This document shows, piece by piece, positions 16,129 to 49,919 of a stretch of 64,000 nt of DNA (position 1 is the stretch's first letter; every line of letters starts with the position of its first letter). The translations under genes and the position numbers were made by a program. This stretch comes from a phage. The notes under the pieces are model-generated. The model did not search any database. It saw nothing but the letters and a program-made list of their open reading frames with translations, and had not been told where the DNA came from. The stretch lies in the sequence record PZ386974.1, one strand, 5' to 3'.

Positions 16129-17643
16129 ATGACAGATATTAAAGTACATTTTCATGATTTTAGCCATGTAAGAATTGAATGCGACGAAAGCGTGTTCTAT
16201 GAATTACGCGACTTTTTTAGCTTTGAAGCCGATGGGTACAAATTCAACCCGCGTTACAAATATGGGAACTGGGATGGTAGAATTCGACTTTTAGATTACA
16301 ATCGTTTGTTACCATATGGACTTGTAGGACAAATAAAAAAGTTCTGTAACAATATGAGTTATTCTGTATGGATTGACCCTAAAATCTTTGAGACTGAAGA
16401 CCTTACCAGGGAAGATTTTGACGCATGGCTTTCTAAACAAGAAATTTATTCTGGCAACGCCAAAATTGAACCACATTGGTATCAAAAAGATGCAGTATAT
16501 GAAGGACTAGTTAATCGTCGTCGAATTTTAAACCTTCCGACATCAGCAGGTAAATCACTAATCCAAGCACTTTTAGCTCGGTATTATCTAGAGAACTATG
16601 AAGGTAAAATTCTCATTATCGTCCCTACAACGGCATTGACAACTCAGATGGCTAATGATTTTGTTGATTATCGCTTGTTTAGTCATTCGATGATTAAGAA
16701 AATTGGCGGTGGTGCTGATAAAGCGGACAAATCTAAAAACGACGCTCCAATTATTGTTGGCACATGGCAAACGGTAGTTAAGCAGCCTAAAGAATGGTTC
16801 TCTCAGTTCGGTATGATGATGAACGACGAATGCCACTTAGCAACAGGCAAAAGTATTTCTTCAATCATCTCAGGATTAAATAATTGCATGTTTAAATTCG
16901 GTTTATCCGGCTCATTAAGAGACGGAAAAGCCAATGTAATGCAGTATGTAGGCATGTTCGGCGAAATCTTCCGTCCTGTTAGCACGTCTAAATTAATGGA
17001 AGATGGACAGGTAACTGAGCTTAAGATTAATAGTATTTTCCTTCGTTATCCGGACGAATTCACCGTTAAATTAAAAGGTAAAACATACCAAGAAGAAGTT
17101 AAAATTATTACCGGACTAAAACGTCGTACAAAGTGGATTGCTCAACTTTCGGTCAAATTGGCTAAGAAAGACGAGAACGCCTTTGTAATGTTTAAACACG
17201 TTACACACGGTAAAGAAATATTTGAAGCTATTAAAGAGCTTGGATACGAAAAAGTTTATTACGTATCAGGTGAAGTTGATACTGAAACACGTAACGCGCT
17301 TAAAGTCATGGCAGAAAATGGTAAAGGCATTATTATTGTCGCATCATATGGAGTATTCTCTACTGGTATTTCAGTCAAGAATCTTCATCATGTTATTTTC
17401 GCCCATGGTGTTAAATCAAAAATTATCGTACTTCAAACAGTAGGTCGTGTGCTTCGTAAGCATGGTTCTAAAGCTGTTGCTACAGTTTGGGATCTCATCG
17501 ATGACGCAGGTGTAAAACCTAAATCATTAAATACTAAAAAGAAGTATACTCATCTTAATTACTTGTTAAAACACGGTATTGATCGTATCCAGCGTTACGC
17601 TGATGAGAAATTTAACTATGTAATGAAAACAATTAATTTATAA
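16129..17643 (+). CDS. uvsW: UvsW DNA/RNA-DNA helicase
   Basis: 504-aa ORF; SF2 helicase motifs (PTSAGKS Walker A, DECH box). Confidence 0.93.
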   Translation: MTDIKVHFHDFSHVRIECDESVFYELRDFFSFEADGYKFNPRYKYGNWDGRIRLLDYNRLLPYGLVGQIKKFCNNMSYSVWIDPKIFETEDLTREDFDAWLSKQEIYSGNAKIEPHWYQKDAVYEGLVNRRRILNLPTSAGKSLIQALLARYYLENYEGKILIIVPTTALTTQMANDFVDYRLFSHSMIKKIGGGADKADKSKNDAPIIVGTWQTVVKQPKEWFSQFGMMMNDECHLATGKSISSIISGLNNCMFKFGLSGSLRDGKANVMQYVGMFGEIFRPVSTSKLMEDGQVTELKINSIFLRYPDEFTVKLKGKTYQEEVKIITGLKRRTKWIAQLSVKLAKKDENAFVMFKHVTHGKEIFEAIKELGYEKVYYVSGEVDTETRNALKVMAENGKGIIIVASYGVFSTGISVKNLHHVIFAHGVKSKIIVLQTVGRVLRKHGSKAVATVWDLIDDAGVKPKSLNTKKKYTHLNYLLKHGIDRIQRYADEKFNYVMKTINL

Positions 17644-17668: not shown

Positions 17669-17899
17669 ATGGTACTTGAATTTAAACAATTTTTATACGA
17701 AGCATCTATTGACGAATTCATGGGTAAAATTGCTAGTTGTCATACCTTAGAAGGGCTTGAAGAATTGGAAGCTTATTATAAGAAACGTATAAAAGAAACG
17801 GAATTAAAAGATACAGATGATATTTCTGTCAGGGATGCCTTAGCAGGTAAGCGTGCCGAACTTGAAGGCGATGATGAGGATGTGGAAGAAGACTTCTAA
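17669..17899 (+). CDS. uvsW.1: UvsW.1 small acidic protein
   Basis: 76-aa ORF downstream of uvsW with AGGAG RBS. Confidence 0.75.
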   Translation: MVLEFKQFLYEASIDEFMGKIASCHTLEGLEELEAYYKKRIKETELKDTDDISVRDALAGKRAELEGDDEDVEEDF

Positions 17900-17959
17900 T
17901 TAAAAAAAGGCCCGACCTTTTTGGAAGGGCCAAAAACCATAGGCAAAAAAGGTAACACT

Positions 17960-18127
17960 ATAGTAAAAGTTGGGTTTCGTTCAATTGCTCTTCTGAACTT
18001 TCTGAAACCGGCAATTGTTGGACATAATTATAACAAGGACCAGGATGTGCTGGACCTTTGTCTGTTTCAACAACCAATGCAGAATCGATTGGAGTTTTAC
18101 AGACAACACAAATCTTATCTGACATGA
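17960..18127 (-). CDS. small Cys-containing protein (uvsY.-2-like), below ORF-track size cutoff
   Basis: 55-aa ORF MSDKICVVCKTPIDS...PGPCYNY with GGAGG RBS 7 nt upstream; hand-translated. Confidence 0.5.
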
Positions 18128-18157
18128 TTGCCTCCTAAGTTGAAATTACATATCTAT

Positions 18158-18382
18158 TTATACCACTCGCATGCACATATCGATACCCATATCTTTTGTA
18201 TAAAAATACTCGTCGATGTACCCAGCAAACTTCCCTTTAATATAAAGGACGTCTTCGCCACAAGGATGGTCTGCCAGGATACGAATATCCTGACGACGTA
18301 GACGATACTTTTCCATTAAGAATTTAATTTCAGTTTCAAATTCTTCATCATTATTAAAGGCATCTTCAATTGAATAACGCAT
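18158..18382 (-). CDS. hypothetical protein (uvsY.-1-like)
   Basis: 74-aa ORF downstream of uvsY, stop/start overlap. Confidence 0.6.
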   Translation of the reverse strand: MRYSIEDAFNNDEEFETEIKFLMEKYRLRRQDIRILADHPCGEDVLYIKGKFAGYIDEYFYTKDMGIDMCMRVV

Positions 18383-18795
18383 TATTGCCCCGCTTCAAAT
18401 TCTCGCATATCCTGGATATGTTTAAGTGCAAAACTACGAGACTTAACTGCGTCAAGTGCACCACTACAGAACTCAAGTAAAATTCCCCAGTATTGTAAAG
18501 TAGTCTCTATTTTAAGCACATCTTTATCTGCAGCCAGGACAGTTTTCATTTCAGATTTCTCGTATCGGTCCATACTGAATTCATCACCATCACCTCGTCC
18601 CGAGTAGTAGTCTAATCTCGCTTTTAGAGCAGTTTTCTTCTGAGTCTCTATACGCAACATTTCTTTACGAATAAATGAGTGCTTACGTAGCCATTTGCTG
18701 TATAACTTAACATTATTCGCTGTCTCATATTGCAACTTTGTCGTATCAATAGCTAAGTCTGCGTCTAACTCTTCCTGTAAATCTTCCAGCTTCAT
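18382..18795 (-). CDS. uvsY: UvsY recombination mediator
   Basis: 137-aa product from internal ATG (MKLEDLQEEL...) matches T4 UvsY; the 164-aa ORF-track version is an upstream extension. Confidence 0.9.
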   Translation of the reverse strand: MKLEDLQEELDADLAIDTTKLQYETANNVKLYSKWLRKHSFIRKEMLRIETQKKTALKARLDYYSGRGDGDEFSMDRYEKSEMKTVLAADKDVLKIETTLQYWGILLEFCSGALDAVKSRSFALKHIQDMREFEAGQ

Positions 18796-18875
18796 AATAT
18801 TCTCTCTTTTAACTAATAATCTCCCGGCTGTATCGGAAGGACCTAAAACCATTATACATAGGTTGCCTTGAAGCA

Positions 18876-19274
18876 TTACACTCTATTGCTTGATGCTAAC
18901 TGAAGTTTGATTTGTTCGATATCATCAGGGTTATCTACGACCGAAAATCTAATCTCTACTATAACTGTATAATCATCATATACTGGCGTTACACTTACAG
19001 AAAGTTTGTCGATGCGCGGCTCATAGTTACGGACGGCTGCCTGGATATTACGCTCAATCGTATCGGCTGTAAGTGGTGTCATGTTCTCGAAAAGTTCATC
19101 AACCAAATCGCATCCAAATTCAGGGTCGAAGGGGCGTGAGCCTTTTCTAGTTGTCACTATGCCAAGAAGACTATTTTTAATAGAACGAAGTCCTACAGAA
19201 CGAGCAACGTCCTTGTTCCAATCCATACGCATTTCTGGGTCGATATCTGAATAAAGTTTATTGATATTAGACAT
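18876..19274 (-). CDS. 25: baseplate wedge protein gp25
   Basis: 132 aa; MSNINKLYSDIDPEM... near-identical to T4 gp25. Confidence 0.95.
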   Translation of the reverse strand: MSNINKLYSDIDPEMRMDWNKDVARSVGLRSIKNSLLGIVTTRKGSRPFDPEFGCDLVDELFENMTPLTADTIERNIQAAVRNYEPRIDKLSVSVTPVYDDYTVIVEIRFSVVDNPDDIEQIKLQLASSNRV

Positions 19275-19918: not shown

Positions 19919-19930
19919 TATTTATAAATA
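19919..19930. promoter_or_regulatory. palindromic bidirectional late promoter TATTTATAAATA between genes 26 and 51
   Basis: 12-bp palindrome gives TATAAATA on both strands, correctly spaced upstream of gene 51 (+) and gene 26 (-). Confidence 0.5.
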
Positions 19931-49016: not shown

Positions 49017-49919
49017 TTATAGACCAGCTAACAGGTCATCGAGGTCGCCATCATCAGAGGATGAGGTAGAGCTCATGAAGTCATCTTCAGTTTTTGCAGA
49101 ACTAAAGGCTTCCATGTCTTTATCAAAATCGTCAAGGTCAGAAGCAACTTTATCTGCAACAGAAGCTGCGGCAGCTGCTGCACCACCAAGAGCGGCAGTA
49201 CCAAGAACCTTAGCGAAAGATTCATTTAATTTTTCAAATGATTTGAACTGGTCTTTAGCCGTCAAAGTAGTAAGGTCTACCATCTGGTCATATAGTTCTT
49301 TCTGGAATGCTTCGTCATTAATACGAGGAATTTCAGACTGACCCAAGAATTTAGATTCGTCATAGTTGCTAAAACCGGAAACCTGCTTAGCTTTCAGAAC
49401 GAAGTTAGCACCTTCAAACGGACAAGTAACATCAACTGGAGTTTCACCCATTTCGGTATCAACTGCAATCATTGCATTGATTTTGTCCCAAATCTTTTTA
49501 CCGAAACGATATTTAAATACTTTACCTTCGTTATCTGGAGCTTGAGGATCTTTAACAACCAGAATATTAGCCCAATAAGAAGTTTTACGTTTCAGTTGAG
49601 AATATTCAGCTTTGTTGGTATTGTACAGGTCATTTTTACTAATGTACTGACATACAGGACAAGAGTCATAATCACCATGTGTAGAAGAGCAATTTTCAAT
49701 ATACCATTTACCATTTTTCTTGAAACCATGGTTAACAAGAATTGCAAATGGTAGTGCATCATCAGTTTTTGCTGGCAAGAAACGAATTACCGCTTGACCA
49801 TTACCGGATGCATCTAGCTTCAGCTTCCATTCGCCTTTATCTTCTGAAGAGAAACCTTTGTTACCATTCAGTTTAGCCATTTGAGCAGCGAGGTCAGCAG
49901 TAGATTTACGTTTAAACAT
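49017..49919 (-). CDS. 32: single-stranded DNA-binding protein gp32
   Basis: 300 aa; MFKRKSTA..., zinc-binding H/C cluster, acidic C-terminus. Confidence 0.95.

Follow-up and report, generated by a model that had tools for sequence, protein, structure and literature searches.

In bacteriophage T4, uvsY.-2 lies between uvsY.-1 and uvsW.1 and is described as an [quoted passage not shown] No published domain architecture for uvsY.-2 or its family, DUF2685, was found in a literature search. Among the systems that resemble it in build are zinc fingers and acidic tails. LIM fingers are protein-binding modules, and the Escherichia coli protein YacG, with about 60 amino acids, one zinc site, and an acidic C-terminal tail for protein binding, inhibits gyrase. 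In T4, the C-terminal region of gp32 recruits UvsY, UvsX, gp59, and Dda, and gp32 residues 271-301 are disordered in the gp32-Dda crystal structure (PMC11551737). A T4 CRISPRi-ART screen places uvsY.-2 in the "Semi-Fit" class and uvsY, uvsY.-1, and uvsW in the "Not Fit" class (PMC11879866). Single-guide knockdown of uvsY.-2 leaves the titre about unchanged (5e9 vs. 5e9-1e10 in the control), and the plaque area falls from about 112-293 px to about 37-137 px, a defect that is complemented (PMC11879866). Among T4 genes whose function is wholly unknown, few besides uvsY.-2 have a confirmed, complementable fitness cost upon knockdown, and the authors of the screen propose that such genes might inhibit defences (PMC11879866). 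Since uvsY.-2 is classed apart from uvsY, uvsY.-1, and uvsW, its role may lie outside their pathway.

The window, the whole stretch of phage DNA analysed here (64,000 nucleotides, record PZ386974.1), comes from an RB69-like Mosigvirus. The 901 bases spanning uvsY.-2 show 99.9% identity with Mosigvirus (RB69-like) phages such as moskry and AV110. The genes of the locus, in window positions, are:

16129-17643, plus strand: uvsW, the neighbour beyond uvsW.1
17669-17899, plus strand: uvsW.1, 76 aa, the converging neighbour (Pfam UvsW-1, E 5e-27)
17921-18127, plus strand: antisense ORF starting with TTG, 68 aa, an artefact, the frame being broken by at least one stop in 15 of the 20 relatives compared
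17958-18125, minus strand: uvsY.-2 coding sequence, DUF2685 member, 55 codons plus TAG
18158-18382, minus strand: uvsY.-1, 74 aa, the same-strand upstream neighbour (PHROG 1541, E 2e-45)
18382-18795, minus strand: uvsY, the recombination mediator, 137 aa (from homologues and annotation)

Genes 25 and 26 are found beyond uvsY. In the ORF list, uvsY appears as a frame of 164 aa (18382-18876, minus strand), which is over-extended: the real start is at 18795 (MKLEDLQ...), and the extension overlaps the end of gene 25.

The 55-codon ORF is a genuine gene, the Mosigvirus orthologue of T4 uvsY.-2, and its product is a 6-kDa protein restricted to T4-like phages. On the minus strand, within window positions 17700-18400, its ATG is at 18125-18123 and its TAG at 17960-17958, and its translation is MSDKICVVCKTPIDSALVVETDKGPAHPGPCYNYVQQLPVSESSEEQLNETQLLL. 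A preliminary description had correctly recognised a minus-strand ORF of 55 codons between uvsW.1 and uvsY.-1, although it placed it at 17960-18127, two nucleotides off. It had also called the ORF "unlisted," and this real coding gene is indeed missing from the ORF track, solely because of the 60-aa cutoff used there. It is not a new ORF, as it has long been annotated in T4 (uvsY.-2/y11A), is likewise annotated in hundreds of relatives, and has its own Pfam and PHROG families. The Pfam DUF2685 model (PF10886) matches residues 3-55 over model positions 1-55 with an E of 9.9e-32 and 109.4 bits, against a cutoff of 25, and PHROG 1043, labelled "unknown function," matches with an E of 7.5e-30. The comparison with T4 uvsY.-2 (NP_049797) that had been proposed reveals an orthologue with 51 of 55 residues identical, and close relatives carry the annotation "putative 6.1 kDa protein," similar to T4 y11A. 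When the protein is used in tblastn searches, relatives appear in 1251 phage records, with hosts that include Escherichia, Klebsiella, Shigella, Acinetobacter, Vibrio, Aeromonas, and others. DUF2685 is found only in phages, and their hosts are confined to Gammaproteobacteria. Scanned exhaustively with HMMER, 1.84 billion cluster representatives yield only 55 clusters, nearly all of them stand-alone proteins of 51-66 aa, and identity among the UvsY.-2 proteins of enterobacterial phages is 68-98%.

The nucleotide sequences bear out this coding status. In 20 distinct orthologous 168-nt coding sequences, the differences from the window at codon positions 1, 2, and 3 number 163, 95, and 334, respectively, and this concentration at third positions supports uvsY.-2 as a coding gene. 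The 68-aa frame on the plus strand is interrupted in three quarters of these same relatives, which makes it the artefact that it had been suspected to be.

Signals for expression accompany the gene on both sides:

17902-17931, minus strand: intrinsic-terminator-like hairpin GGCCC...GGGCC followed by a run of seven T, within the 58 nt that separate uvsY.-2 from uvsW.1, which converges on it
18131-18136, minus strand: Shine-Dalgarno sequence AGGAGG, with a 5-nt spacer (CAATC) to the ATG
18155-18162, minus strand: late promoter box of the T4 type, TATAAATA, which shares bases with the stop codon of uvsY.-1 and starts 37 nt upstream of the uvsY.-2 ATG

The strong ribosome-binding site noticed earlier is thus present, but its distance to the start is 5 nt and not the 7 that had been given. 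Across enterobacterial relatives, AGGAG or GAGG followed by ACAATC-ATG is kept. The TATAAATA pattern occurs 20 times in the window vs. 7.1 expected. The box upstream of uvsY.-2 bears a late-promoter annotation in phage SA79RD and recurs at its place in T4 and an Acinetobacter phage. Of 69 distinct upstream contexts, 19 have it exactly, and in many others inspection shows a version with one mismatch at that position. The hairpin has an unexceptional folding energy by itself (z -0.74), and it recurs with its T-run in relatives whose stem and loop sequences differ; the annotations of SA79RD and Makalu list it as a terminator. Judging from sequence motifs and the annotation of relatives, we infer that the box serves as a late promoter and the hairpin as a terminator. 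The gene would then be expressed both by read-through of uvsY and baseplate-gene transcripts and from its own late promoter box, and its transcripts would end at the hairpin shared with the converging uvsW.1. The hairpin's loop (17917-17924) contains AAAAA in the window vs. TTTTT in T4 (locus L003), while the GGCCC/GGGCC stem is kept, and the element is nearly palindromic and may stop transcription from both converging genes. Elsewhere in the window, two exact copies of TATAAATA, one on each strand, share bases shortly past the start of gene 26 (19919-19926, minus strand; 19923-19930, plus strand). In relatives gene 51 diverges from gene 26 near 19919-19930, and the arrangement looks like a compact divergent pair of late promoters.

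The protein itself can be divided into two parts:

18015-18116, minus strand: predicted CCHC treble-clef zinc finger, residues 4-37 (from alignments and the AlphaFold2 model; K10, P12, G24, and G29 are also conserved)
17961-18014, minus strand: acidic Ser/Glu-rich tail, residues 38-55, ending in ETQLLL (conserved E42, family motif at the C-terminus)

The family has a conserved C-x2-C-K ... H-x-G-x-C core and a hydrophobic end, and the corresponding residues C6, C9, K10, H27, G29, C31, and L53 are all present in the window ORF. The preliminary description had reported the CxxC pair (C6, C9) and the PGPC (C31), and it had looked to related phages for conservation of the ORF and its cysteines. 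These are indeed conserved: in an alignment of 88 relatives reaching down to 36% identity, C6, C9, K10, and C31 are invariant, and G24, H27, G29, E42, and L53 are at least 90% conserved. The putative metal site is made up of Cys6, Cys9, His27, and Cys31, spaced C-x2-C-x17-H-x3-C. One clade (P0112, P0113, and Cronobacter phage leE) has Cys in place of His27 (GPIC-x3-C), which is the behaviour expected of a metal ligand.

The AlphaFold2 model built on the 88-sequence alignment has a mean pLDDT of 79, with block values of 81-89 in the finger. There, strands are formed by residues 4-5, 12-13, 19-21, and 24-26, and a helix by residues 30-37. The CxxC lies in the loop of the first hairpin (4-13), His27 ends the second hairpin (19-26), and Cys31 is within the first turn of the helix. 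The DSSP assignment of the model shows all the elements that define a treble clef: a zinc knuckle, followed by a beta-hairpin and by a helix with the last ligand at its N-terminus. A Foldseek search of the PDB brings up mainly treble-clef domains, with single LIM fingers first and L24e, PHD, RING, and GATA also present; the best matches, LIM fingers 2dlo and 1iml, superpose with an rmsd of 1.4-1.6 Å over 29 residues at E values above 0.4, which are not significant. Against viral models, Foldseek scores are significant only for other DUF2685 proteins. Sequence searches of the PDB with the single protein and with the 88-sequence profile find no family structure, only noise such as lysostaphin repeats and the Vps39 zinc finger (E 0.02), and an NCBIfam search with UvsY.-2 finds nothing. 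Together, alignment and model allow one to predict fairly safely that the protein binds one zinc ion through Cys6, Cys9, His27, and Cys31 in a treble-clef fold. The zinc-ribbon-like fold suggested earlier as a possibility, where the putative ligand His27 had been overlooked, does not agree with the predicted structure. A zinc ribbon has two CxxC-type knuckles, each on a beta-hairpin, and a three-stranded sheet, whereas here there is only one CxxC knuckle, and the second pair is H27-x3-C31, with C31 on a helix in the model. Membership among LIM domains was rejected as well. These comprise two tandem zinc fingers in about 55 aa, with eight ligands; DUF2685 has four conserved ligands in a single finger of about 35 aa and no Pfam LIM match.

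The tail, with its hydrophobic C-terminal end, is the most conserved feature outside the metal site and had been missed in the preliminary description. In the AlphaFold2 model, residues 38-55 have no secondary structure (block pLDDT 59-71). The tail has an acidic run as well as an (S/T)-E-(S/N) element that is conserved, and in 139 of 140 family members the chain ends with a hydrophobic pair that has no more than two residues after it. The full motif [DE]-x-[QE]-h-h-(0-2 residues)-COOH is found in 119 of the 140, its near-universal form being [DE]-x-[QE]-L-L-(L/M/I). The family is acidic throughout, with a mean pI of 4.5; the finger has a mean net charge of -1.8 and the tail one of -4. This composition makes nucleic-acid binding, and hence DNA binding by UvsY.-2, appear unlikely, and favours binding to proteins. 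Longer family members were considered as possible fusions and discarded. The 100-101-aa members P0024, P0029, P0039, and P0041 read ...LLIQ and then junk, and look like gene calls running through a stop codon, perhaps owing to an alternative genetic code on metagenome contigs. The 126-aa P0119 (phrog_26998) has an unrelated-looking N-terminal extension and an internal Met exactly at the normal start.

What such a tail might bind was considered by comparison with known C-terminal peptides. The bacterial beta-clamp motif (QL[SD]LF or QLxLxL) has a conserved Gln at position 1 and an aromatic residue or Leu at position 5. The C-termini of DUF2685 proteins do not fit it: the Gln is often Glu, ELLL is the commonest ending (29 of 140 members), many members end after two hydrophobic residues, and an aromatic residue is present there only in one QFLA. 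Another comparison is with gp32, encoded in the window at 49017-49919 on the minus strand. The gp32 of an Acinetobacter phage ends in ...ELNDLLNGL. Among the 257 window ORFs of at least 45 aa, only eight, including gp32, UvsW.1, and UvsY.-2, combine acidic last 14 residues with a hydrophobic end. The shared acidic and hydrophobic tails of gp32 and UvsY.-2 are suggestive as a likeness of sequence rather than as evidence of a common partner. Mimicry of the gp32 tail is kept only as speculation: the composition is alike, but the register differs, and no structure shows the extreme end of gp32 bound to a partner. UvsW.1 (17669-17899, plus strand) has a strongly acidic tail ending in an aromatic residue (...AELEGDDEDVEEDF), a pattern that recurs in relatives (EEEDF, EEESF, EPDEF), with a few distant members ending otherwise. 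The tail is similar to those through which SSB proteins interact at their C-terminus, and UvsW.1 joins gp32 and UvsY.-2 as the third DNA-metabolism protein of the window whose acidic tail has a hydrophobic end.

To see how the gene is placed elsewhere, 76 loci from phage records, IMG/VR, and metagenome assemblies were compared, 75 of them with DUF2685, and neighbours were classed by iterated HMMs. The arrangements are:

32 loci, the commonest arrangement: gp25, uvsY, and uvsY.-2 in one direction, with uvsW.1 and uvsW converging on them
10 loci with the exact six-gene order, including the window: the same order with uvsY.-1 between uvsY and uvsY.-2, a layout identical to that of T4
8 metagenomic loci of four sequence types: the reversed order, with the DUF2685 gene followed by uvsY at a 4-nt overlap
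Cronobacter phage leE, the CCCC variant: uvsY and then the DUF2685 gene, 1 nt apart

In all but three of the 75 loci (the short contigs L017, L018, and L020), the DUF2685 gene adjoins uvsY and/or faces uvsW.1-uvsW. Of the 76 loci, 63 have uvsW.1, which in every case points towards the uvsY.-2/uvsY unit, and a uvsW-family match is nearby except in five DUF2685 loci, which are short or cut contigs; uvsY.-1 is found in only 14 of the 76. In the reversed loci, the upstream genes encode a dda-like helicase, a ligase, and an Alt-like ADP-ribosyltransferase, with no baseplate gene, and the further neighbours are uvsY, uvsW, and RNA ligase 2. Across lineages, then, the gene adjoins uvsY in both possible orders. 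Because T4-like genomes are strongly syntenic, most of this adjacency is inherited and does not count as independent evidence. Adjacency to uvsY outlasts rearrangement while adjacency to baseplate genes does not, which favours a role in DNA metabolism over a morphogenetic one.

The association of the two genes is not strict. Cyanophages have UvsY only, as in Bellamy, where unrelated small ORFs occupy the position of DUF2685, and most Acinetobacter phages have DUF2685 without detectable UvsY. Relatives of uvsY.-2 are present in 69 Acinetobacter records in the tblastn search, and the gene directly follows gene 25 in Acinetobacter phage Morttis (L004, 2315-2501) and in five IMG/VR loci (L064-L067, L070). 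When enterobacterial UvsY or that of phage 133 is the tblastn query, Acinetobacter does not figure among the organism counts listed, which speaks against UvsY being a partner that is always required. In the Acinetobacter T4-like lineage, UvsY may have been lost, moved, or replaced.

Other features of these loci are worth recording. In T4-like phages of Aeromonas and from metagenomes, immediate neighbours of the DUF2685 gene encode proteins with weak, sub-threshold YqeY-like matches (PF09424; L005:2004-2474, L015:82-522, L019:38-709, L006:1912-2325), and a Vibrio phage gene between the DUF2685 gene and uvsY is annotated as "tRNA amidotransferase." In Aeromonas Biquartavirus, a protein of this kind takes up the slot of T4 uvsY, and the UvsY HMM found no UvsY there. 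In two metagenomic loci (L009:6875-9394, L010:5638-8157), UvsW has 839 aa instead of about 500, with weak or faint LAGLIDADG and Hom_end matches, which suggests an intein or a homing-endonuclease insertion in the helicase. L010 also has an I-TevI-like gene between uvsW.1 and uvsW.

The best explanation, and on balance a probable one, is that this orthologue of uvsY.-2, consisting of a zinc finger and a tail, is a protein-binding accessory of the UvsY/UvsW recombination module. Residues 1-37 would fold around one zinc ion as a treble-clef finger like a single LIM finger, and residues 38-55 would be a tail, acidic and flexible, with the terminal [DE]-x-[QE]-L-L-(L/M/I)-COOH as a conserved docking peptide. 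The protein would bind other proteins and not nucleic acids. More tentatively, charge, fold class, and gene neighbourhood weakly point to a small protein that serves UvsY/UvsW recombination and repair as an adaptor or regulator, its finger contacting one partner while the C-terminal peptide plugs into another, much as the acidic C-terminal tails of ssDNA-binding proteins recruit theirs. Its loss would cause a mild growth defect rather than lethality. A further extension, by analogy with gp32 and distinctly unlikely as a specific claim, would make UvsY.-2 a regulatory subunit of the T4 machinery for recombination and recombination-dependent replication, acting through a gp32-like C-terminal peptide. 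This peptide might compete with or replace the gp32 tail on UvsY, UvsW, or a helicase or loader. If this were true, UvsY.-2 would tune the assembly of the presynaptic filament, or the late switch from origin-dependent to recombination-dependent replication. At the level of description, the analysis provides uvsY.-2 with a domain architecture (a CCHC treble-clef finger and an acidic tail with a near-universal hydrophobic C-terminal peptide), documents its lasting linkage to uvsY/uvsW, and leads to testable hypotheses in a classic model system.

The main rival is a host-directed inhibitor or counter-defence protein, an acidic zinc finger that would block a conserved protein of Gammaproteobacteria (for example a nuclease, a topoisomerase, a protease, or a defence sensor) with its C-terminal peptide as a plug. 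We consider it rather unlikely, although several observations agree with it: the low pI throughout the family, the restriction to phages of Gammaproteobacteria, and retention in Acinetobacter phages that apparently lack UvsY. In addition, the knockdown phenotype exceeds that of uvsY or uvsW in the same screen, whose authors raise defence inhibition as a possibility for such genes (PMC11879866). However, a search of the PADLOC-DB HMMs for anti-defence and defence proteins gives no match at E <= 1, nor is there any other family match. Host take-over genes are also typically early, whereas this gene has a late promoter box, its place beside uvsY/uvsW is kept even after rearrangement, and the identity of 68-98% across enterobacterial phages is unusual for genes engaged in an arms race.

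A part in late morphogenesis, as a small assembly chaperone, a minor virion component, or another baseplate accessory, is highly improbable. It would suit a gene that has a late promoter box and comes last, on the 3' side, in the late transcription unit of genes 26-25, following gp25, with or without uvsY between them, in most loci and directly so in Acinetobacter phages. It does not suit the rearranged metagenomic loci where no baseplate gene is nearby, nor phage leE, where the gene lies between the capsid genes and uvsY on one side and uvsW on the other. Even less probable is a nucleic-acid-binding zinc ribbon, a small regulator of transcription or translation, which would extend the earlier zinc-ribbon idea: many phage zinc ribbons do bind nucleic acids, and the CxxC motif and small size are what one would look for, but the second pair is H-x3-C with its Cys on a helix instead of a second CxxC knuckle, the finger is negatively charged on average in a protein of pI 4.5, and Foldseek ranks protein-binding LIM, RING, and PHD fingers first. 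A chance ORF or non-coding spacer, conceivable for a short frame in an AT-rich genome, is already refuted by the Pfam match (E about 1e-31), the 1251 phage records, the codon-position bias, the conserved Shine-Dalgarno sequence, promoter box, and terminator, and the complementable phenotype in T4.

UvsY.-2 can finally be set beside the known systems. T4 uvsY.-2 is of equal length, gives a full-length HMM match, and has the same place between uvsY.-1 and uvsW.1, with the same Shine-Dalgarno sequence, late promoter box, and terminator. Relative to T4, the window protein carries the substitutions A26V, V35I, Q36K, and Q37E, none at a conserved position, and no functional difference is apparent. 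The first finger of LIM domains (C-x2-C-x16-23-H-x2-C) has the same CCHC ligand order and the same succession of knuckle, beta-hairpin, and helix with the last ligand as the UvsY.-2 model. However, a LIM domain has two fingers and UvsY.-2 one, and the spacing is H-x3-C vs. H-x2-C in LIM, so that with sequence and Foldseek scores that are not significant, this is a resemblance of fold without membership. The acidic C-terminal domain of gp32 (the A-domain) and the C-terminus of E. coli SSB (SSB-Ct) share with UvsY.-2 a flexible Ser/Asp/Glu-rich segment and a short hydrophobic free C-terminus, but UvsY.-2 lacks an OB fold, and the motif register differs (QLNETQLLL in UvsY.-2 vs. DLDDLLAGL in gp32). 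YacG, which serves only as an analogy for the host-directed rival, has in common with UvsY.-2 its small size, a single zinc site (predicted in UvsY.-2), and an acidic C-terminal tail; it differs in being a host protein with a CCCC site and no detectable sequence relationship to UvsY.-2.
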